Positions 11,441 to 35,635 of a stretch of DNA of 64,000 nt are shown piece after piece. The position numbers and the translations under genes are program-made. Where the stretch lies: assembly GCA_031362565.1 (NCBI GenBank), contig JANLSU010000070.1, forward strand, positions 1-64,000. The letters run 5' to 3'. The notes beneath the pieces are model-generated. The model saw only the letters and a list, made by a program, of their open reading frames with translations. It did no database searches and was not told the origin of the DNA. Numbering within the stretch: the first letter of the stretch is position 1; each line of letters begins with the position of its first letter. This DNA comes from a bacterium (lineage in GTDB: Bacteria; Krumholzibacteriota; Krumholzibacteriia; G020349025).

Positions 11441-11836
11441 TTACTTGCGGCGGCCGACCGGCAGTTCGACCAGGACCGGCTCGGCGACGCGCACCACGGT
11501 GAGATGCGCGAAACCGCCGAGCGCGACCGACGACGGGCCCGGCGAGAAGCGGACGACGGGGATGCGGGCCCGTGACAGATCGAGGCGCAGTTCCGCCTTG
11601 GGCCACACGTGTTGGAGGACGAATTCCTGGGCCGCCCCCGACAGCACGACCCGGGCTTCGCGCGGCGGATCGGCGAGCAGCATCAAAGTGTCGGGCAGGT
11701 TCACACAGCGCACCGGCAGTGACACTTCGCGCTCGACGATCTTCGTGCCGTGCACGAACGACCAGAGCAGCAACGCCAGCACCAACGACAAGATCTTGAG
11801 TCCGAGATTCTGCCGCCACCCATCCACCCGGCGCAT
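11441..11836 (-). CDS. CdaR/YbbR-like protein (single repeat)
   Basis: NLGLKILSLVLALLLWSFV anchor typical of YbbR/CdaR, followed by one beta-rich domain. Confidence 0.7.
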   Translation of the reverse strand: MRRVDGWRQNLGLKILSLVLALLLWSFVHGTKIVEREVSLPVRCVNLPDTLMLLADPPREARVVLSGAAQEFVLQHVWPKAELRLDLSRARIPVVRFSPGPSSVALGGFAHLTVVRVAEPVLVELPVGRRK

Positions 11837-11838
11837 GC

Positions 11839-12462
11839 TCACGGCTCCCGGTACAACGCCTTGATCTGACTCCAGGACTGCGGGACGACGGCGGTCGTAC
11901 ACCAGCAGTGTTGGGCGCAATTCAACACCGCGTCGATGCCGGGGGCCGCAAACCGGCGTAGGTCGCTGCCGGTCGGGTCGTGTGGATTGCAGACCCGGAA
12001 CTGCGGATCCTGGGTCGCCGTCGAATCGGTCCCGAATCCCTCCAAGTGCAGCCGCAGGTCGGGGCGAGGGGTGTCGCCAAAGCTGAGGTCGTCCAGAACG
12101 AACTCTGCCACTTGGAAGGGCGAGGGCCCGGAGAGGCATTCGCGAAAGCGGACCGCAAGACCAGACGACAAGTCACCCTGCGCTTCGATCACGACCCTGG
12201 AACGCGGAAACACCAGCGACTGGTCGTGCACGGAGATCAGCAGCGGAAACTGCACCCGGAGCAAGACGCCGCTGATCGACGAGTCCGGCGGAATGAACGC
12301 GAACAAGTACGCGCGCACCGACCCGAACGGCACGATCGGCGCGCTGCAGACCGTCGCTTGCGGGTCGAAAAACACGCCGATGCGCTGGCCCAGCAAATGC
12401 GTCGGCGCCACGAGCAATACCGCCACAGTCGCGGCCCCGAGTCGGAACAACCAGTGCTTCAC
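11839..12462 (-). CDS. Secreted hypothetical protein with C-terminal SWSQIKALYR motif
   Basis: GTG start after CAGGAG RBS, signal peptide, IGVFFDPQATVC, C-terminal TAVVPQSWSQIKALYREP. Confidence 0.75.
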   Translation of the reverse strand: MKHWLFRLGAATVAVLLVAPTHLLGQRIGVFFDPQATVCSAPIVPFGSVRAYLFAFIPPDSSISGVLLRVQFPLLISVHDQSLVFPRSRVVIEAQGDLSSGLAVRFRECLSGPSPFQVAEFVLDDLSFGDTPRPDLRLHLEGFGTDSTATQDPQFRVCNPHDPTGSDLRRFAAPGIDAVLNCAQHCWCTTAVVPQSWSQIKALYREP

Positions 12463-12589
12463 GTGAATCTCCTGCGGCCTGGCGAGCCTGCTGCTATCGT
12501 AGGGGGCGTGGTGCCAGGGCGCAAGCCTTGCAGTGCGCTGCATCCGACCACGGCCACCGCGTGCGGCGGCGCGGCACACGGCCGCCGCT

Positions 12590-13741
12590 TCAGCCGCCCT
12601 CGCGCACGAATTGTTCGACGCCGGCGGTGAGCGACTCGGCATAGCGGCGCTGCGACGCGCTGTTGCGCAGCATCTGCGCGTCGCGTTTGTTGGTGATGAA
12701 CCCGAGTTCGACCAGCACCGACGGGCAGGCGATCGACTTCAGGACCGCCAGCGCACCCTGTTTCAGACCACGGCTGTCGTTGCCGGGAAGTGCTTCGAGC
12801 TTGTCGAGGACGGCTTCGCCCAGCCGCTGGCTCTCGCGCATGGCCTGGTTCTGTTTCATATTCCACAAGATGTCGACGATGGGCTGCACTTCTTCGCCCT
12901 TCGGCACGCCGCCGACCTGATCCGCGGCGTTCTCCCGGTCCTCGAGTTCGCGGGCCGCTTTGTCGGCGGCACCTTTGAGCGACAAGAAGAACACTTCGCT
13001 GCCGCGCGCCGACGCCGACGCCGCCGAGTTGAGATGAATGCTCATGAAGACGCGCGCGTCATAGCGGCGGGCGATCTCTTGGCGCTGTCCCAACGGGATG
13101 AAATAGTCACGCTGGCGCGTCAACACCGCCCGCATCCGCGGCCGCGACTCGATCGCGCCGGCCACGAGCTTCGCGACATCGAGCGCCACGTCCTTCTCGG
13201 CCAGGCCATTGCCGCTGCAGCCGGGGTCGTTGCCCCCATGCCCGGCGTCGATCGCGACGATGATGTCGCCGCTTTTGCGCACCGACTCTTCCTCGCGCTC
13301 CTGGGCGGTCTTTTCATCGGCGGTCAGCGTCTTGCGCAGATCGAGCACGATGCGGTGCTGTTCACCGCCGGCATTCGGCGCCAACGGGAAGGCGGTGAAA
13401 TCGGCGTCGCGGACCAATTCCACCCGCATGAGCACCGAAGTCGCGGTGTTCTCGAAGACGATGCGATGGACGAGCCCATCGTCGACGAGGGCTTCGAAAT
13501 CGGCGCACTGGGCGCCCAGAATCTCGACGACGACGCGCTGATCGGGATAGGCACGGGTCGCGAACTGGGCGGGGGCGTCGAGTTCGACGACCAGCCGGGT
13601 GTGATCGGGGGCGCTCCAGCGCCGCATCCGGCGTACGCGCAGGGTTGCCGCGACGACGACCCCGGAGGGCAACGCCACCCAGACCGGCAACGCGACGAGC
13701 AGTCCCAAGAAATGTCGTCTGGAGAGTTCGATCGTGCGCAC
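12590..13741 (-). CDS. N-acetylmuramoyl-L-alanine amidase (AMIN + Amidase_3), Tat-exported
   Basis: SRRHFL twin-arginine signal, IDAGHGG, EKDVAL, SIHLNS, SVLVELGFITN. Confidence 0.92.
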   Translation of the reverse strand: MRTIELSRRHFLGLLVALPVWVALPSGVVVAATLRVRRMRRWSAPDHTRLVVELDAPAQFATRAYPDQRVVVEILGAQCADFEALVDDGLVHRIVFENTATSVLMRVELVRDADFTAFPLAPNAGGEQHRIVLDLRKTLTADEKTAQEREEESVRKSGDIIVAIDAGHGGNDPGCSGNGLAEKDVALDVAKLVAGAIESRPRMRAVLTRQRDYFIPLGQRQEIARRYDARVFMSIHLNSAASASARGSEVFFLSLKGAADKAARELEDRENAADQVGGVPKGEEVQPIVDILWNMKQNQAMRESQRLGEAVLDKLEALPGNDSRGLKQGALAVLKSIACPSVLVELGFITNKRDAQMLRNSASQRRYAESLTAGVEQFVREGG

Positions 13742-27403: not shown

Positions 27404-28501
27404 TTACCTTTCTGTACGGCGGTCGCGACGCCGGGCGCGTTCGGCGTCCGTCAATCCATCGGCGCCGCGTCGCGCGATCGCGACACGCGGCATCTCGAAA
27501 CGGCGGGCACGGGGCCGATCCACGCTCTCCGCCGCCGGAGTCGCGACGCGTCGCGCTCCGTCGTCGAGATCGCGATCGCCTTCCCGCGACGTCGCTCCAC
27601 GTCGCGGGCCGTCGACGGAAGGGGCCCCGTACTCCGCCGCGTCACGTTGGTGCCTGCCCGCATCGACGCCCACTTCGCGCCGGCGCCGTTCACCCGGGAC
27701 GGGACTCCGGTTCCCCGGTGACGGCCTCGGCTCGAAGTGCGCTTCGGCGTGCCGCAGCACGCGACGATCGTTCTGGTAGACGTACAGTGGTCGGTACACC
27801 GGCCGGCAATACCGGCCGCCGCGCTGCCAATCCCAGGCCAGTTCGGCGCGGACTTGCGTCCACGGACCGTGGTAACCGCGATAGCGGCCGGCGCACACGC
27901 CGCACAAATACGCCGGATGCGAGCCCGCATGCCCGACGCAGTACCACGCGGCGTGGGTCGCGAACGCCGCCTTGTCCCAGTCCGGGAAAAGCAACCGGTT
28001 CACATCGTTGAAACCATCGAGTGGATCGCCTTGCACCCGCAGCGGACTGCCGTCGCGCCACCAATCACACCGGCCGTCGCCGGCGACGAGTCCGATGCCA
28101 CGCCAATCGAACGGCACCGGGCTCGCAACGGCCTGCACATAGACGATCCCCTCGACGCCGCAATCGGCGATCGGATACGCGACACTGCGGCCGTCCAAAC
28201 GCACCCGCTCACCCGCCGGCACGAATCCGTCCGCGCTCCAGAAGCGCGGGAAGAGCAACCGAACCCAGCCCTGCGGGTCGATGGCATACACCGCCACGTA
28301 TGCATCCGAATCGACTTGGAACGACAGGCGTGCCGTTTCGCCCGCCTGCACAACGGCGCCGGAACCGCCTGCAATGCGCAGATCGAGTTGCACGTCGCCG
28401 CCATACCACGCGTCCCAGTCCGGGCGCGGCGGATGAGCGGTTGCCGCGGCCGGCAACGCCACGCACGCCGCGATGCACCACAGGCGAGAAGCGTGCTTCA
28501 T
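27404..28501 (-). CDS. DUF4384-like secreted protein with Arg-rich tail
   Basis: Signal peptide; GETARLSFQVDSDAYVAVYAIDPQGWVRLLFP; GVEGIVYVQAVASPVPF. Confidence 0.7.
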   Translation of the reverse strand: MKHASRLWCIAACVALPAAATAHPPRPDWDAWYGGDVQLDLRIAGGSGAVVQAGETARLSFQVDSDAYVAVYAIDPQGWVRLLFPRFWSADGFVPAGERVRLDGRSVAYPIADCGVEGIVYVQAVASPVPFDWRGIGLVAGDGRCDWWRDGSPLRVQGDPLDGFNDVNRLLFPDWDKAAFATHAAWYCVGHAGSHPAYLCGVCAGRYRGYHGPWTQVRAELAWDWQRGGRYCRPVYRPLYVYQNDRRVLRHAEAHFEPRPSPGNRSPVPGERRRREVGVDAGRHQRDAAEYGAPSVDGPRRGATSREGDRDLDDGARRVATPAAESVDRPRARRFEMPRVAIARRGADGLTDAERARRRDRRTER

Positions 28502-29415
28502 CGCGCCACGCTCCGTTCCGAGCGGCTGTGTACGGGGCCGTTGCCGGCTCCCAGGTGCGGCTTGAGTTCCAGGCTGTTGGGTTGGATTTGATACGCCCAG
28601 TCGAGCAGCACCGAATCCCCGCTCAAGCCGACGACGCGCACCTTCGCGACATTGAACGGTTCGACATCGTTCCCCGACCGCGTTTCCTCGTACAGCTTGA
28701 GGAGGATCACATGCCCCATCTGCAGAGGCACCACCGACACCGGCGACCAGGTCGACTCGTCGAGGTGGCCAACGCGGTCGTCGTCCAAGTTGAAGACGCC
28801 GAGATCTTGAAGTTCGACCACACTCGGTTGCCCGGTGCGCAGCACCGGGCGGCCTTCCCAGGCGTAGTACACATCGGCGAACAAGCTGTTGGACTCGAGC
28901 GCATAGCCGTAAGGAGACCGCGAAAAATCGTAGCCGCTCTCCGCGTGGCGGGTGCCGTTCGCGTCATAGAGGCGCAAATCCCGGCCGGCCGGCCGCGGCG
29001 TGTCGGAGGCGACCGACGCATCGCCAAGATCGCTGTGATTTCCGGCGTAGTCGACCGATTCGACGGCGAACCAGTAGGTCGAACCGTTGCGCAGATCGAA
29101 CGGCACGTCGGCCGGCAACGATGCGCCGCGCACGACCCAGTGGCGTTGCGACACCGGCGCTTCGGCAACGCGGTAATAGTCTTGATCGTCGCGGCTGATC
29201 AGGATGCGAAATCCCGCCAGGTCCGCGTCGTGCGGCGGCGACCAGTAGACTGTCACTTGACCATCTCCCGTTACCGAGTAGACGTCGCGCGGTTCGCCGG
29301 GAGCGACGTTGTCGTTGTGGTCGAGCACGTCGCGCCGGTGTGCGTCGTCGAAGCAGCCGGTGAGCGCAGCCGTTCCGACGAGCGCAATGCAGATTCCAGT
29401 TCGCCGCCCGGTCAT
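28498..29415 (-). CDS. Lipoprotein with fibronectin type III domain
   Basis: Lipobox LTGC; GDGQVTVYW..DLAGFRI..LRNGSTYWFAVESVDYAGNHS. Confidence 0.8.
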   Translation of the reverse strand: MTGRRTGICIALVGTAALTGCFDDAHRRDVLDHNDNVAPGEPRDVYSVTGDGQVTVYWSPPHDADLAGFRILISRDDQDYYRVAEAPVSQRHWVVRGASLPADVPFDLRNGSTYWFAVESVDYAGNHSDLGDASVASDTPRPAGRDLRLYDANGTRHAESGYDFSRSPYGYALESNSLFADVYYAWEGRPVLRTGQPSVVELQDLGVFNLDDDRVGHLDESTWSPVSVVPLQMGHVILLKLYEETRSGNDVEPFNVAKVRVVGLSGDSVLLDWAYQIQPNSLELKPHLGAGNGPVHSRSERSVAR

Positions 29416-29572: not shown

Positions 29573-29588
29573 CGCAACCGACATGCCA
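29573..29588 (-). promoter_or_regulatory. Sigma-54 (-24/-12) promoter for the lipoprotein-DUF4384 operon
   Basis: TGGCATGTCGGTTGC versus consensus TGGCAC-N5-TTGC; palindrome TGTC-N8-GACA upstream at 29753-29768. Confidence 0.65.
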
Positions 29589-29821
29589 GTGGACGGCAGT
29601 TCCGCCACGCGCCGCATTTCGCGCTCGACCGGCGGGCGCATTCGCAGCAGATGCTGGCACTTGCGTCGGCGGCGCCGGCGCGCGCCGGGCAGTGGCGCGG
29701 CGCCGCGTCCCGGTCTCGAACTCACTCTTGTTGTTGTCATGCCTGAACACCTTGTCTACTTTCCGACACAGTGCCACGCGAATCCCGCGCGGCCCGGCCG
29801 ACTCGCACGACGGAGAGTGGA

Positions 29822-30937
29822 ATGCCCCTCGCACCGGCTCCGGAACTCGCCTGTCCGCGTTGTTCCGGCCACTTGGAACCGGGCCCGGGCAGCGCGCGCT
29901 GTTCCCAGCATGGCGAGGTCGCCCGCCTCGACCCGCACGGGGTCTGGGTGTTCGACGCGTCGGACACGTACTGGGGCGAGGTGGACCGCGGCCTGATGCA
30001 GCGGGTCCTCGCCACCGCCCGGGCCCACACCTGGCGCGCGGCGCTCGAGACCGAGCTGCGGCCGGTGCATCCAGGCCTCATGAACTACGTCCACCATCCG
30101 GCCCGCGCCGACTGGCACGTGCTCTTGCCGCTGGATCGCGAACACACCGTGGCGTTGGATGTCGGTGCCGGTTGGGGCGCCAACAGCTTCGGGATCGCGC
30201 CGCACGTGCGGCGGGTCTTTGCGGCCGAGAAAGTCGCCGAGCGCGTCGAGTGGATTGCGTTGCGCGCGGCGCAGGATGGGATTTCGTCCGTCATTCCGGT
30301 GCGCGCCGATCTGCAGTCGCTGCCCTTCGCGCCGGGCAGCCTGGACGTCGTGGTGGTGAACGGCGTGCTCGAATGGGCCGGCCTCGCCGATCCGAACGCG
30401 CCTGGCGGGCGCCCGGCGAATCCGCGCCTGCTGCAGGAGCGCTTTCTCCGCCAGCTTGCCACGCTTCTGCGCCCGGGCGGCTGGCTCTACGTCGGCATCG
30501 AGAACCGCTTCGGCCATATGTTTCTGCGTGGCGCGCCCGACCATCAAGGACTGCGCTACACGAGCCTCATGCCGAAGCCCATGGCGCGGGCCTACACTTG
30601 GCTCCGCGCCGTGGCGTCACCGCGCACCCATCACGTCGAACGGGACTACCGCACTTGGATCTACTCGTTCACCGGTTACCCGGCATTGCTCGAGCGGTGC
30701 GGTTTCACCGACGTGCAGCGCTATGCGGCGGTACCCGGCTACAACGTGCCGGCGGTGCTCGTGCCGCTCGCGACGCGCGGTCCGATGCGTTACCTCACAC
30801 AACGCGTCCGGCCCGCCGCCGGTCCGCGCGCGCACTTGCGACGCCGGATGTCGCAAGTTCTCGCCGACACGGGGCTCGAAGCCTGGCTGACATCGTGTTA
30901 TGCGCTGACCGCGCGGCGCCCCGGGCGTGACTCATGA
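29822..30937 (+). CDS. Class I SAM-dependent methyltransferase with N-terminal Zn-ribbon
   Basis: CPRC..CSQH, LDVGAGWG, LPFAPGSLDVVVVNGVLEW, LRPGGWLYVGIENR. Confidence 0.85.
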   Translation: MPLAPAPELACPRCSGHLEPGPGSARCSQHGEVARLDPHGVWVFDASDTYWGEVDRGLMQRVLATARAHTWRAALETELRPVHPGLMNYVHHPARADWHVLLPLDREHTVALDVGAGWGANSFGIAPHVRRVFAAEKVAERVEWIALRAAQDGISSVIPVRADLQSLPFAPGSLDVVVVNGVLEWAGLADPNAPGGRPANPRLLQERFLRQLATLLRPGGWLYVGIENRFGHMFLRGAPDHQGLRYTSLMPKPMARAYTWLRAVASPRTHHVERDYRTWIYSFTGYPALLERCGFTDVQRYAAVPGYNVPAVLVPLATRGPMRYLTQRVRPAAGPRAHLRRRMSQVLADTGLEAWLTSCYALTARRPGRDS

Positions 30938-31920
30938 TCGAGCGCATCGAGACCGAATTGCGTGCTGCGTGGTCACGGCGCGGCGAACCGGCACCGCGCC
31001 GCGTGCACTGTCTCAAATTCGGCGCCGCCAACTACGCGAACCCCGGTACCGCCTTGGTGTTTTTTGCGTTTCGCGACGCCGCCGCGCAACCGGCCGCGGT
31101 GGTCAAGGTGGCGCGCGATGCCGCCGGTGATTCCGCCGTCGAGCGCGAAGTCGAGTCGGTGCAGAGCCTGCGCGCCCGGGTTGGGGCGGTGTTGGCGCGG
31201 CTCATTCCGGAGCCGCTGGCGGACGGCGCAGTGAACGGCCGCGCTTTCGGGGCGTGGACCGCGCTCGGCGGCACCGCCGACTTGCACCATGTCGACGGGC
31301 CGCGCGGCGCGCGCCGCAGCGAATCACGCATCGCCGCCGCCCTCGGTTTCCTGCGCGACCTGCAACGGGCAACGCCGGCCGCACCGGTCCGTGCCGCGGA
31401 GTGCATCGGACCGTGGGATGCGGTCCGAGCCGAACTCGCCGCGGCGGGCAGCACACCGGCTGGCTTGGAGAAATTGGCCGCGGTGGCGGCGGCCGCGTGG
31501 GAAACGCCGTGGCCGGCCGCACTCGCGCATGGCGATTTCTTTCCCGGCAACATTCTCTTCGACGCGCGCCAAGTGACCGGCGTGGTGGACTGGGCGACGG
31601 TGGTGCTCCGAGCGCCGGTTTGGCTCGATTCGCTCGGGTATGAACTGAGCTTCGCATTGCATGCGCTGTCGCGTGGCCGCGGCGCGGAGACCGCGGAGCG
31701 TCGGGCCACGGCAGCACTCGGACCATTTGCCGCCTCCGGCACCGAGCTCGCGGCGGCGGGCGTCGACGCGGGCTGGGGTTCGGCGGCACGCGTGCTGGCG
31801 GTTGCGGCGGGAGCGGTGCGCGAAACCCGCGGCGGCGCGGCGCGGCGTGGCGTGGCGGAGTTGTGGCTGCGGCTCCTTGAACTGGAAGCACGCGACTTCG
31901 GCGGGCGCGGCGCGCCATAA
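30934..31920 (+). CDS. Aminoglycoside-phosphotransferase (APH)-like kinase
   Basis: AVVKVAR, HGDFFPGN (Brenner motif), VVDW; ATGA overlap with the methyltransferase. Confidence 0.8.
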   Translation: MIERIETELRAAWSRRGEPAPRRVHCLKFGAANYANPGTALVFFAFRDAAAQPAAVVKVARDAAGDSAVEREVESVQSLRARVGAVLARLIPEPLADGAVNGRAFGAWTALGGTADLHHVDGPRGARRSESRIAAALGFLRDLQRATPAAPVRAAECIGPWDAVRAELAAAGSTPAGLEKLAAVAAAAWETPWPAALAHGDFFPGNILFDARQVTGVVDWATVVLRAPVWLDSLGYELSFALHALSRGRGAETAERRATAALGPFAASGTELAAAGVDAGWGSAARVLAVAAGAVRETRGGAARRGVAELWLRLLELEARDFGGRGAP

Positions 31921-31949
31921 AAATGGGCCGCCGCGATTGCGACGGCCCA
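31919..31949 (-). terminator. Rho-independent terminator on the minus strand
   Basis: UGGGCCGUCGC-AAUC-GCGGCGGCCCA-UUUUU; the U-G pair works only on the minus strand. Confidence 0.75.
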
Positions 31950-32236
31950 CTCCGGAGGCCCGAGCCAGTATGACGTTCGTCCCACTGTCACCGAGTTCTC
32001 GCCTCAACCCGGTGTCGTTCCCCCGTCTCCGCTCGTCACGGAGCACGGCTTCATGAATGTCGGCGCAGAGGTTCGGCGAGGGCGACACGGTAAAAATTCG
32101 CTAGGGGGAAGCACGAGGCCGGGATGGAGCGCCAATCCCCACACTGGCGTCCATCCCTAAGCCCCAGCTTTCCGATCAACCCGCGAATCTCGAACGGTCG
32201 ACCTGAGATTCGCGAGTCACGCATCGATGCGAACAG
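31919..32236 (-). ncRNA. Candidate sigma-54-dependent structured small RNA (~320 nt)
   Basis: Bounded by a sigma-54 promoter and a terminator; two long stems (32182-32214, 32115-32165); no ORF with an RBS. Confidence 0.55.
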
Positions 32237-32500: not shown

Positions 32501-32523
32501 AAAAAAAAACGGGCTGACGCCCG
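32501..32523 (-). terminator. Terminator of the TPR sigma-54 activator gene
   Basis: CGGGC-GTCA-GCCCG followed by T9 on the minus strand. Confidence 0.75.
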
Positions 32524-32566
32524 CTCTGAGCCTCCAGTTGGGCTCGGCTGCCCCTTTGGCCGCAAC

Positions 32567-35500
32567 TCACATTTCGCCTGGCTCGACGGCTGAACCGTAC
32601 AGTTTGATCTTCTGCAAGAGGCTTGGATAGCTGATCCCGAGCATGCGCGCCGCTTCGGATTTGTTGCCATCGGAACGGCGCAGGCAAACTTGGATGAGAT
32701 GCGACTCGAGTTGCGCGACGTGTTCGCGCAGCGTCAAACCACCGGGGTCCGCTGCCTCGTCGACGCCGTCGGAGAGCGCCTTGAGTTCGTCCGGCAGGTG
32801 CCGCACGGTAATCGGCTGGCGATCGTCCGCCAGAATGACCGCCCGCTTGATGCATTTTTCGAGCTCCCGCACGTTGCCCGGCCAGGCATAGGCCTCGAGC
32901 AGTTGCATGGCCTGGCGCGACACACCGGGAATGGTCTTCTGCATCTCCACCGTGAACCGGCGCAGGTAGTGTTCGACGAGCGGCTTCACATCGCCGCGGC
33001 GGGCGCGTAATGGCGGGATCGTGATCGGGAAATCATTCAACCGGTAGTACAGATCTTCGAGAAACAAACCCTGGCTCACGAGTTCCTTGATATTGCCCTT
33101 CGTCGCCACGATGACCCGCACATCGACCTTGCGGAAGACGTTCGAGCCGACCGGACGCACTTCGGAACTGTCGAGAAACTGCAAGAGTTTGCCCTGCATG
33201 AACAGCGACGTCTTGCCGACCTCGTCCAAGAAGACCGTCCCGCCCGTGGCGGCTTCGAGCAAGCCCATTTTCTCGGAGTCCGCGCCCGTGAAAGCGCCGC
33301 GCGCGTGCCCAAAGAGTTCGCTTTCGAGCAGCGGTTCCGGGAGCGCCGCGCAGTTCAGGGCCACGAACTTGCGGCCGCGCCGTTCGCTCGCCATGTGAAT
33401 GCCGTGGGCCAGCAACCCCTTGCCGGTGCCGGTTTCGCCGGCCAGCAGCACCGTGCAGGTGCTCGCGGCCACCTTCTGCGCCAAACCCATGACCCGGAAC
33501 ATCGACGCATCAGTGGTGATGAGACGGCGCATGGCCGGATGCAAATCGTCGCGTCCGGTTTGCACTTCGGGCGCTTGCAGCTGTTCGCGATAGTGCTCGG
33601 CCACCAACACGCCCGCCATACTCGCGAAAGTCGCCACGACGTCGACGTCGTCGGGGCCAAAGGGCCGCGGCGCTTGGGCCCGCGCCCGCTCGACATACAC
33701 CACACCGATCACGCGTTCGCCGGCGCACAGCGGATGCCAAATCACTGCGCCGGCGCGCGCCGCCAAGTCCGCAAACTGGCTCGCGAACGCACCGTCGACC
33801 TGGGCGAGCACCCGCGGCCGGCAACCGTCACTCATCATCGCGCCGGCGAGTCCGAGCGCTTCGTCGGCACCGATGCCGCTTGTACCGTGCAGATGCGCCG
33901 CCGCCTCACCCGGAAAACGCAGCGCCAAGAACGCCGACGACGCGCCGACGCGATCCCGCAATGCTTCGAGCGACTGGCGCAAACCGGGCTCCAGGTCATT
34001 GGCCGAACGCGCCAGCGCATACAAATCCGAAAACAACTGCGTCGCGCCGCCGGGACCGTGGCTTGAACGGGCGACGAGCGCACTTTCCAGGTCACGGCGC
34101 AGGGCCTGCGCCTCGCCCAGGAAACCGAACGTGGGATTGTCCTCGCACAGCCGCTCGACGTCGTACAGGGCCAGGAGTCCATCGTCGTATTCACCGCGCC
34201 CGAGATGGGCGCGCGCGATCACGAGCCCCGCCGCGCAGTAGCCATGATCTTCTTCGAGCGCGTGCAGGGCTTCGGAGGCCGCGGCACCTTCGTGGGCGGC
34301 GCGCAACAGCCCTTCGGTGTCGCCCTGCGAGCAATGCAACCGCCCCAATTCGATACGGCTCCATGCCGCTTCGAACGGATTCGCGGTGCGCTCGAAGGCG
34401 GTCACACTGGCGGTCAGACACTTGATTGCCTCGGCGTGGTGCCCGAGTCCCGCTGACGCGAGTCCGAGAGTGCGGAGGATGAAACCCACTTCGTGCGTGT
34501 CGCCACAGGACTCGCAAACCTTCAATGCACGGCGGGCAATCGCGACGGCCTCGGAGCGCAGCCCGCAGCGCAGTTGCAATTCGGCCTGGCGGCGCAGGAT
34601 CTCGCCGACGACGTCACCCTTGGGGGCGAAGGACCGCGCCTTCTTGAGCCCCGACTCGTAGTTCTCGCGCGCCTCGGCCAAGCGGCCCTGGGCGAACATC
34701 GAATCGCCGAGGAATTCGTCGGCGAGCGCCAGCGAGCGCGCCATCTGATGCCGCTCGGCGACAACGCGCGCCTCGAGCAGATATTTTTCGGCCTGCGCGT
34801 ACTTCCCCATCGCAATGAGGACGCGGCCCAACGAATTGAGGCAACTCACCACGGTACCTTCGTCGCCCAGCGCACTCGCCAGCCGGCGCGCGCGCCGCAA
34901 GTGCGCCACGGCTTCGTGGAACTCGCGAGTTTTGGTGTAGACGATGCCGAGATTGCCGAGCGTGCGCGCCAAACGCCGGGTCACTCCGAGACGCTCGGCG
35001 ATATCGCGCGCCTGGGTCAGCGAACGAATCGCTTTGTCCCACTGGCAGGCGTTCTTGTACGCCAGCCCGAGATTGTTCAAGACATCGGCGATGCCCTCTT
35101 GATCCTCGATCCGGCGATACGCCGCCAGGGCGTCGAGATTCAATTGCTCGGATTCCGCGGCGCGTCCGAGACGCAGGTTGCAGCATGCGGCGACGCTCAG
35201 CACGAAGGCGTATTCGCGGTGAGCGGCCGTCGCCTTGAGGATTTCGAGAGCGATGCGGGCGTCTTCGAGGGCCGCTTCGTGCCGCCCCTGCGAGCACAAG
35301 AGATCGGCGCGCCGCCCAAGCATGAGACCATGCTCGAGTTCGTATTCGTAGCCCTTCAGGAACAAGCGGGCGCGTTCCAGGTACGTCTGCGCTTGCTCGA
35401 GCTGGCCGCGCGAGCGCAGGCAATCGGAGATCTTGCGGTTCAAACGGGCCGCGACCGTGGGATCGAATTCGACCTCGGTGCCGAGTCCGCGCAGCGCATC

Positions 35501-35635
35501 CTCGTAGTACTCGAGCGCCGGCGAAAAGGCCTCGGTACCGAAATGGACGTCGCCGACTTCCTCGAGAGCAGCCAAGGACGCGGCCGACTCCCGGCCGTTG
35601 GGTTCCCCTGGATCGTGGCGATCGCGACTCAGCAT
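32567..35635 (-). CDS. TPR-repeat / GAF-like / sigma-54 AAA+ / Fis-HTH transcriptional activator (~1022 aa)
   Basis: TPR-like repeats (LNNLGLAY, LGNLGIVY, LNSLGRVL), GETGTGK, ESELFGH, GAFTGA, FLDEVG, WPGNVREL, NKSEAARMLGIS. Confidence 0.92.
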   Translation of the reverse strand: MLSRDRHDPGEPNGRESAASLAALEEVGDVHFGTEAFSPALEYYEDALRGLGTEVEFDPTVAARLNRKISDCLRSRGQLEQAQTYLERARLFLKGYEYELEHGLMLGRRADLLCSQGRHEAALEDARIALEILKATAAHREYAFVLSVAACCNLRLGRAAESEQLNLDALAAYRRIEDQEGIADVLNNLGLAYKNACQWDKAIRSLTQARDIAERLGVTRRLARTLGNLGIVYTKTREFHEAVAHLRRARRLASALGDEGTVVSCLNSLGRVLIAMGKYAQAEKYLLEARVVAERHQMARSLALADEFLGDSMFAQGRLAEARENYESGLKKARSFAPKGDVVGEILRRQAELQLRCGLRSEAVAIARRALKVCESCGDTHEVGFILRTLGLASAGLGHHAEAIKCLTASVTAFERTANPFEAAWSRIELGRLHCSQGDTEGLLRAAHEGAAASEALHALEEDHGYCAAGLVIARAHLGRGEYDDGLLALYDVERLCEDNPTFGFLGEAQALRRDLESALVARSSHGPGGATQLFSDLYALARSANDLEPGLRQSLEALRDRVGASSAFLALRFPGEAAAHLHGTSGIGADEALGLAGAMMSDGCRPRVLAQVDGAFASQFADLAARAGAVIWHPLCAGERVIGVVYVERARAQAPRPFGPDDVDVVATFASMAGVLVAEHYREQLQAPEVQTGRDDLHPAMRRLITTDASMFRVMGLAQKVAASTCTVLLAGETGTGKGLLAHGIHMASERRGRKFVALNCAALPEPLLESELFGHARGAFTGADSEKMGLLEAATGGTVFLDEVGKTSLFMQGKLLQFLDSSEVRPVGSNVFRKVDVRVIVATKGNIKELVSQGLFLEDLYYRLNDFPITIPPLRARRGDVKPLVEHYLRRFTVEMQKTIPGVSRQAMQLLEAYAWPGNVRELEKCIKRAVILADDRQPITVRHLPDELKALSDGVDEAADPGGLTLREHVAQLESHLIQVCLRRSDGNKSEAARMLGISYPSLLQKIKLYGSAVEPGEM

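Follow-up and report, generated by a model that had tools for sequence, protein, structure and literature searches.

A putative sigma-54-dependent structured RNA encoded beside a TPR-GAF activator gene in Krumholzibacteriia

The first 64,000 nucleotides (nt) of the forward strand of contig JANLSU010000070.1 (GenBank assembly GCA_031362565.1), from a bacterium of the class Krumholzibacteriia, were analysed as one stretch, which we call the window. On its minus strand it contains a region that is probably the gene of a trans-acting regulatory RNA of ~320 nt, made by way of sigma-54 under the adjacent activator. Its identity as an activator-coupled sigma-54 non-coding RNA, judged from sequence comparison, appears probable, and the comparative data support a non-coding transcription unit whose structure is conserved along with the sigma-54 promoter ahead of it. 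A preliminary description of the window had already proposed a structured RNA of ~320 nt behind such a promoter, and the hairpins, the promoter and the terminator are all located at the coordinates it gave. While the RNA unit itself stood, this description had overlooked the activator gene upstream, the sigma-54-driven lipoprotein gene downstream and the class-wide family to which the RNA appears to belong.

The putative transcription unit extends from the promoter TGGCACGGCGGGTGC to an intrinsic terminator (Table 1). Both ends are assigned from sequence, the 5' end from the promoter and the 3' end from the U-run of the terminator. The promoter provides the sole match to TGGCAC-N6-TGC in the 64-kilobase (kb) window, against a mean of 0.72 matches in shuffled sequence. 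Because shuffles give about one match too, the weight of the promoter lies in its conservation and not in the match count of the window. Exactly one TGGCA[CT]-N6-NTGC is present in each homologous sequence (16/16), 344-395 nt ahead of the RNA end and with a variable spacer. RpoN is encoded in the window's genome (5.5e-63). The minus strand of the unit folds with -157.1 kcal/mol (z = -3.89), which is equalled by none of 100 shuffles, and the plus strand yields z = -2.77 with one equally good shuffle in 100. The perfect 10-base-pair (bp) stem described earlier at 32182-32214 is formed by CGCGAATCTC and GAGATTCGCG (32214-32205 and 32191-32182) and is extended on the minus strand by C-G, U.G and A-U pairs. 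Likewise, the long stem described at 32121-32157, GGGATGGA-CGCCA/TGGCG-C-TCCATCCC (32157-32145 and 32134-32121), is found in the minimum-free-energy fold together with its outer extensions GGGGC/GCCUC and GGAAAGC/GCUUCC.

Homologs of the RNA are found in close relatives and in metagenomes. A BLASTN search among 40 relatives gave a match of ~50 nt in only two, and in both of them the match is preceded by the orthologous activator gene and a promoter of GG-N10-GC spacing. Two covariance models built from three sequences were searched against 151 genomes of the class, for which we use family labels f1 to f9, and the RNA was found in five genomes of family f1, i.e., the window's genome and four others. 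Furthermore, a motif scan of metagenome contigs yielded 23 loci, 11 of which carry both domains of the RNA with correct order and strand. Domain A, the rod-like hairpin that is the best-conserved part of the RNA, obtains 60-92 bits with the models R2 and R3 in each of the 12 distinct homologs. Weak model matches outside f1 (22-28 bits, in G063, G134, G068, G011, G021, G083 and G166) were rejected because they represent generic GC hairpins or coding-like sequence and come without promoter, terminator and 3'-domain match. Weak matches of model R1 in G004 were rejected as well, as domain A is absent nearby.

The alignment of these homologs comprises 14 sequences, of which two rows nearly equal genome copies; two metagenome loci had been dropped because their cores are identical to genome copies. 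The consensus structure has 53 pairs; of its 736 cells, 98.1% are paired, and both sides have changed in 16 of the pairs, so that the relatives and compensatory changes that the preliminary description had proposed to look for are both at hand. No shuffle out of 500 reaches these values of pairing and covariation, a count (0/500) that is no probability, as the aligned sequences share kinship; controls in which the pairing partner was slid have 36-54% paired cells. Helices 1-3 in domain A are 94-100% paired and show compensatory changes, the stem of hairpin B is 98% paired with two pairs altered on both sides, and helix 8, the RNA terminator, has 5 of its 11 pairs altered in this way. The loops GUGGGGAU and UUGAGGCGAG are both invariant in the aligned relatives. 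Covariation shows a predicted structure in which a 5' hairpin of variable sequence is followed by the long rod of domain A and, at the 3' end, by a domain of several stems. The RNA is assigned to the minus strand because of frequent G-U pairs, which the preliminary description had likewise read as favouring that strand, and because the covariance models score 70-80 bits on the minus strand versus 24 bits on the plus strand.

The novelty of the family, which had been proposed subject to a comparison with Rfam, is supported. At the gathering thresholds of Rfam 15, a transfer RNA elsewhere is the only match in the window and no match to any described family falls into the RNA region, a comparison that includes the Qrr, CrcZ, GlmY/GlmZ, Pxr, NrsZ, CsrB/RsmZ and 6S families. 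There is also no Rfam match in 10 homologous loci or in 19 loci of other families. Seven sub-threshold matches in the region (E 1.3-8; 11.6-15.7 bits against thresholds of 36.5-75) were dismissed as chance, the top one reaching 15.7 bits where 60 are required.

In a single soil study, three RNA libraries yielded one contig apiece, of 233-250 nt, covering positions 31959-32195. The contigs are ~93% identical to the window RNA and differ from it by 15 substitutions and 3 indels, none of which lies within either loop; given this identity, they derive from a relative of the window genome. The flanking genes are left uncovered, in contigs that cannot show absence. Thus, as regards the absence of expression, which had been named as a finding that would speak against the RNA, the contigs give weak support for the presence of the RNA body, without strand or ends.

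Next, we consider the gene located upstream of the RNA, which encodes a bacterial enhancer-binding protein (bEBP) and thus an activator of the sigma-54 type. Its Pfam matches are Sigma54_activat (1.1e-60), TPR_12 (6.6e-37), GAF and HTH_8. Gene calls were partly taken from a custom-made gene caller; the start at ATG 35635 is based on this caller and on the conserved ATGCTGAGTCG start in seven family genomes, and the longest frame reaches 35692. About 240 nt lie between the terminator of the activator gene and the promoter TGGCACGGCGGGTGC. The activator gene is found directly upstream of the RNA and on the same strand in all assessable f1 genomes (5/5) and in all assessable RNA-bearing metagenome loci (9/9), two of the 11 metagenome loci ending too early to judge the linkage. 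Two f1 genomes without the RNA (64% and 71% complete) possess the activator on a contig that ends inside its gene. At loci with chance matches to the search pattern, the activator is never located upstream (0/12). The adjacent TPR-GAF bEBP is, on this arrangement, likely the activator of the RNA promoter. Ahead of the promoter, the conserved block TCAACGCTTTCCAA is a candidate enhancer site, albeit with low confidence, and the A/T-rich block may be a DNA-bending site by analogy with the usual layout of sigma-54 promoters, again with low confidence. As a separate observation, the activator leader ACUCCCGNUCUCGCCGGGG (about -25 to -1; L053, L054, L055, L056, L014) is kept in six of seven f1 genomes and could fold into a hairpin that masks the GGGG ribosome site; the leader of the window genome differs.

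The association of activator and RNA appears to extend to the entire class. One clear ortholog of the activator's N-terminal sensor half is present in 144 of 151 class genomes, with 30-39% identity and a length of about 1015-1060 amino acids (aa). From ~145 activator loci, the 1.7 kb downstream of the activator were sampled in 20 genomes of families f2-f9. A sigma-54-type promoter is found 200-300 nt past the activator stop in 19 of the 20 sampled loci, and GTGGGG follows 45-250 nt past that promoter in 18, with the exact sequence GGTGGGGT in 16. L081 (G081, f3), with an activator frame of 965 aa, is the sole sampled genome that has neither the promoter nor GTGGGG in the 1.5 kb past the activator; in one further locus, masked bases conceal the stretch concerned. 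GGUGGGG forms a 7-nt loop in f2, f4, f6 and f8 on the covarying stems GAGA/UCUC, GUGA/UCAC, GCGA/UCGC and AAGA/UCUU. Moreover, a counterpart of loop B, GGCGAG(R)WYC (GGCGAGRWYC), is presented in a hairpin loop in 11 of the 20 loci, and the C-rich CCCCUCCG follows it at +31 to +36 in f3, f7, f8, f9 and part of f1. Synteny and shared motifs show the window RNA as the presumptive f1 form of an RNA encoded behind the same activator class-wide, with the GGUGGGG hairpin loop as its hallmark.

The 3' part of the RNA differs in its arrangement among families. In f1, f2 and f6 it is fused to the sigma-54 transcript. In f3, f7, f9 and one f8 genome, the part with the GGCGAGAUCC and AUCCCCUCCGG loops (L082-L084, L090-L092, L100) has the look of a separate RNA of ~110 nt, with a closing stem and U-run of its own and a TTGACA-N17/18-TAnnnT promoter read by eye. 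When the sigma-70-type promoter ahead of the 3' domain, read by eye in f3, f7, f8 and f9, was sought by a scan, it was found in L092 and not in L083, and the counts are not above those of shuffles. A separate sigma-70-type promoter is thus a lead only, and the 3' domain may be modular.

Downstream of the RNA, a lipoprotein-like gene recurs. A second sigma-54 promoter is located 500-780 nt past the first in 16 of the 20 sampled loci, and a same-strand lipoprotein-like gene follows the RNA in 14. In G003 this gene stands directly after the RNA, and the second promoter reads TGGCACGAGCTATGC. In the window, the lipoprotein gene is parted from the RNA by two plus-strand genes (29822-31920), one without a Pfam match and one encoding an APH phosphotransferase family member (30934-31920), which is the next gene and convergent with the RNA. 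These two genes look like an insertion into the module, as the RNA and the lipoprotein gene adjoin each other in G003 and other families. The lipoprotein promoter probably belongs to the same regulon as the RNA. Since the RNA is usually followed by a second sigma-54 promoter and the lipoprotein gene, the activator, the RNA and the lipoprotein gene appear to form one conserved module. The dyad TGTCGGAAAGTAGACA (TGTC-N8-GACA; 29753-29768, minus strand) lies in a block that is also kept upstream of the lipoprotein gene of G003 (L002, ~1840-1870), and may act as an enhancer for the second promoter.

Table 1. Position of the RNA gene, its predicted elements and neighbouring features in the window.
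Feature	Coordinates	Strand	Remarks
Non-coding RNA	32236..31919	minus	~318 nt; start predicted 12 nt past the -12 GC, end at the terminator U-run
Sigma-54 promoter TGGCACGGCGGGTGC	32262-32248	minus	-24 GG at 32261-32260, -12 GC at 32249-32248; GG-N10-GC spacing
5' hairpin	32179..32217	minus	sequence variable among relatives, hairpin itself kept
Domain A	32107..32173	minus	rod-like hairpin of ~67 nt; best-conserved part of the RNA
Loop A, motif GUGGGGAU	32135..32142	minus	invariant in 14/14 aligned sequences; putative f1 form of the class-wide GGUGGGG loop
Small hairpin CUCCG-UGACGAG-CGGAG	32027..32043	minus	GAGCGGAG motif mostly conserved; pairing read by eye
Hairpin B	31989..32014	minus	loop and closing bases UUGAGGCGAG (32007-31998) invariant in 14/14
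RNA intrinsic terminator	31919..31948	minus	10-bp GC-rich stem (31948-31939/31934-31925), 4-nt loop, then AUUUUUAU
A/T-rich block TAA...TTG...AA	32283..32306	minus	between enhancer candidate and promoter; TAA and TG columns invariant
Conserved upstream block TCAACGCTTTCCAA	32391..32404	minus	CAA-N6-TTG type; ~150 nt ahead of the promoter; kept in an upstream alignment of 12 regions
Intrinsic terminator of the activator gene	32506..32527	minus	9-pair stem, then T9 run; separates the activator gene from the RNA unit
Sigma-54 activator (bEBP) gene	32567..35635	minus	~1022 aa; TPR repeats, GAF, sigma-54 AAA+, Fis-type HTH
Second sigma-54 promoter TGGCATGTCGGTTGC	29574..29588	minus	ahead of the lipoprotein gene, with a leader of ~147 nt
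Lipoprotein-like gene	28498..29415	minus	no Pfam family; 54.6% identity over 280 aa to the gene after the RNA in G003

How the RNA might act can be approached through its loops. Sequence and conservation suggest that the active TPR-GAF bEBP would cause sigma-54 polymerase to start at ~32236 from the promoter at 32262-32248 and to stop at ~31919. The loops would then serve as seeds that pair with C-rich sites in messenger RNAs (mRNAs), a step we advance tentatively, as a serious possibility rather than a probability. For most relatives, a candidate site lies in the mRNA of the activator itself, either in the leader or in the first codons, and pairing there would create a feedback as in Qrr/LuxO. 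Hfq was not found in the window's genome, which is 100% complete by marker genes; this would fit seeds that are presented in loops.

Candidate sites on the activator mRNA differ between families. CUCGCC is located beside the activator ribosome site in f1 (6/7 genomes), f2 and f6, opposite the GGCGAG loop, and CCCCAC(AC) is found in the f5 activator leader, opposite the GUGUGGGG loop. In f4 and f8, the 5'-hairpin loop UCCCGUGCGU is complementary over 10 nt, without a mismatch, to ACGCACGGGA in activator codons 3-6 in 5/5 genomes, and an f3 genome has a collinear match of 8+8 nt to the activator mRNA. Both sides of the f4/f8 10-mer are invariant (RNA side in L085-L088 and L090, ~10-30 nt past the promoter; activator side in L105-L108 and L110).

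Several results weigh against the RNA acting in the way proposed, or against parts of the wider reading. The longest complement of an RNA averages 8.4 nt with its own activator mRNA versus 7.6 nt with activator mRNAs of other families, and windowed duplex energies between RNA and activator give a mean z of -0.23. In the window genome no match to the activator mRNA was found; the longest complement is 6 nt and is equalled or exceeded in 18/18 cross-family pairs. The loop duplexes of the window genome with the activator mRNA (-14 to -18 kcal/mol) do not stand out from the genome background, and folding of full-length duplexes with the activator mRNA was discarded, as it returned long-range duplexes without meaning. 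Feedback on the activator mRNA is therefore statistically weak, a lead for some lineages and no finding in the window genome. Beyond the activator, loop complements are not enriched genome-wide, their counts being equal to those of permuted motifs, and a duplex scan of 3339 predicted start regions gave no excess over internal regions or shuffled loops; its best-ranked matches (a UvrD-like helicase, secreted proteins) share no theme. A perfect 10-mer complement of loop B directly ahead of a GGGGG ribosome site on contig C60 was rejected because it is not conserved in homolog loci. The gene behind it (11502-13189, plus strand) encodes a secreted repeat protein of 555 aa whose end, read by eye, resembles a type IX secretion sorting domain; the protein has many paralogs in relatives, and the loop-B site is not kept there. 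In four relatives the loop-B 10-mer occurs 10 times outside the RNA and its reversed control 23 times; no copy of the 10-mer precedes a start codon. In addition, base-pairing small RNAs mostly have C/U-rich seeds, and G-rich seeds are unusual. As to the class-wide family, covariance models of the f1 type fail to reach other families except, weakly, f6 (the f1 3'-domain model detects the f6 counterpart with E = 0.017), and the presumed homology with the RNAs found in those families is based on shared position, promoter and short motifs. Finally, all RNA contigs stem from one study and represent a relative, and DNA may be present in RNA libraries.

In a different explanation, the RNA is a decoy: its G-rich loops would bind an RNA-binding protein, CsrA or another, that is sequestered by sigma-54-driven bursts of the RNA, in the manner of CsrB/RsmZ with CsrA or of CrcZ with Hfq/Crc. 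We consider this unlikely, though it has several observations on its side. The motifs recur, with two GGUGGGG copies in f4/f8 RNAs and UGGCGA-type motifs in f3/f9; invariant loops on covarying stems suit recognition by a protein as well as they suit seeds; and the searches for mRNA targets, whether genome-wide, in start regions or in relatives, yielded none. CsrA is encoded in the window genome and in 5/5 other family genomes tested, and loop A of f1 contains GGA. However, GGA, described in passages of a 2026 paper as the core of every known CsrA site (PMC13443453), is absent from the class-wide loop GGUGGGGU. In f1 a single loop GGA is invariant; another one, bordering loop B, occurs in 9/14 sequences and is missing from the window RNA. 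Moreover, the two f1 loops differ, whereas known sponges have many copies of one motif, and the genome also encodes FliW, the protein that usually antagonises CsrA outside Gammaproteobacteria. Passages of the same paper predict that few CsrA homologs of Krumholzibacteriota behave canonically (PMC13443453), and the atypical CsrAs predicted there leave room for a different CsrA specificity. A variant along these lines, more doubtful still, would make the GGUGGGG-loop RNA the dedicated output of a phylum-wide master regulator and a new kind of decoy, with GGUGGGG and GGCGAG loops that titrate a protein of novel specificity (a non-canonical CsrA being a candidate) and with a 3' domain exchangeable between a fused and a free-standing RNA. 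The csrA and fliW loci of the window genome are located on contigs C70 (13487-13642) and C33 (36417-43860). There, csrA lies between genes for a TPR protein and a PAS histidine kinase, apart from fliW, which is located among clustered flagellar genes that include flagellin. The leader of the flagellin gene is short, and the likeness of its ribosome site AAAGGGGAC to the GGGGA of loop A was set aside as too generic to count.

Two further explanations concern the immediate surroundings and the coding potential of the region. As a cis-acting leader or read-through transcript, the RNA would control the downstream lipoprotein gene, which indeed follows on the same strand in G003 and in the sampled genomes of other families counted above (14/20). 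This reading is very improbable, as the lipoprotein gene has its own sigma-54 promoter and the RNA ends at a strong terminator that is kept with compensatory changes, i.e., it is a terminated independent unit. The genes downstream of the RNA also vary among relatives, which argues against a leader: two opposite-strand genes intervene in the window, and the next gene is convergent in G001, G005 and G006. We regard it as more improbable still that the region encodes a small protein or a dual-function RNA. Several short frames exist, e.g., a 57-codon frame starting 12 nt past the predicted transcript start and the frame MKPCSVTSGDGGTTPG, which the preliminary description had given as 21 aa (MKPCSV...) and which comprises 16 codons. 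A conserved short peptide had been named there as evidence that would speak against an RNA, but no frame is common to the 14 sequences and none keeps its start, stop, length or ribosome-binding site across them. The 16-codon frame lies in the variable middle, the least conserved part, and conservation tracks base pairs and loops. The small open reading frames were thus rejected as the gene product. A trans-acting RNA made via sigma-54 under the adjacent activator is the reading we favour.

The kind of circuit proposed here, an activator encoded beside a sigma-54 small RNA, is well known, while the RNA family itself is undescribed. In Pseudomonas, crcZ is located just after cbrB, and CrcZ has repeated A-rich AANAANAA motifs and titrates Crc/Hfq. 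The window RNA resembles CrcZ and CrcY in being a large non-coding RNA with a sigma-54 promoter and a specific enhancer-binding protein, features predicted from sequence in our case. For crcZ and crcY, direct binding of CbrB and dependence on IHF and sigma-N are described in passages of PMC6296734. In contrast to CrcZ, the window RNA is G/C-rich by inspection, has two distinct invariant loops and no A-rich repeats, occurs in a genome in which Hfq was not found, and bears no sequence or Rfam relation to it. Unlike CbrB, the activator is not a response regulator and has TPR and GAF input domains.

A second comparison is offered by the Qrr RNAs of Vibrio. They are about 100 nt long, Hfq-dependent and multi-copy; qrr1 adjoins luxO, and the RNAs feed back on luxO mRNA. 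The combination of a sigma-54-type small RNA with an NtrC-family activator is shared with the window locus, as far as its sequence indicates. The difference lies in a single copy of ~320 nt, in Hfq not being found and in a feedback pairing that is unsupported in the window genome. The sigma-54 dependence of the Qrr RNAs and their control by the NtrC-family activator LuxO are reported in PMC11407668 and PMC4878744. The window RNA also differs from the sponges CsrB/RsmZ, whose several loop GGA motifs contrast with the single invariant one here, in a genome that has both CsrA and FliW. Pxr/Nla19 in Myxococcus, GlmY/GlrR in E. coli and NrsZ/NtrC in Pseudomonas are further pairs of a sigma-54 small-RNA gene beside its activator gene. 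Pxr, GlmY and NrsZ are RNAs of other phyla, and their Rfam families are absent among the matches listed up to E 10. What is distinctive in comparison with the known sigma-54 small RNAs are the G-rich loops, the TPR-GAF activator and the class-wide module with a lipoprotein gene.

To our knowledge, Krumholzibacteriia have no cultured model, and none of the literature found to name the group describes a regulatory RNA in it. For this lineage the locus offers a clean and testable circuit composed of a single-copy sensor-activator, a putative sigma-54 RNA with a heptaloop and a co-located lipoprotein gene. The lineage-specific complementarities to the activator mRNA, if true, would let the co-evolution of a small RNA with its target be followed as a natural experiment. 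Moreover, adding the family to RNA databases would allow metagenomes from soil and sediment to be annotated better.

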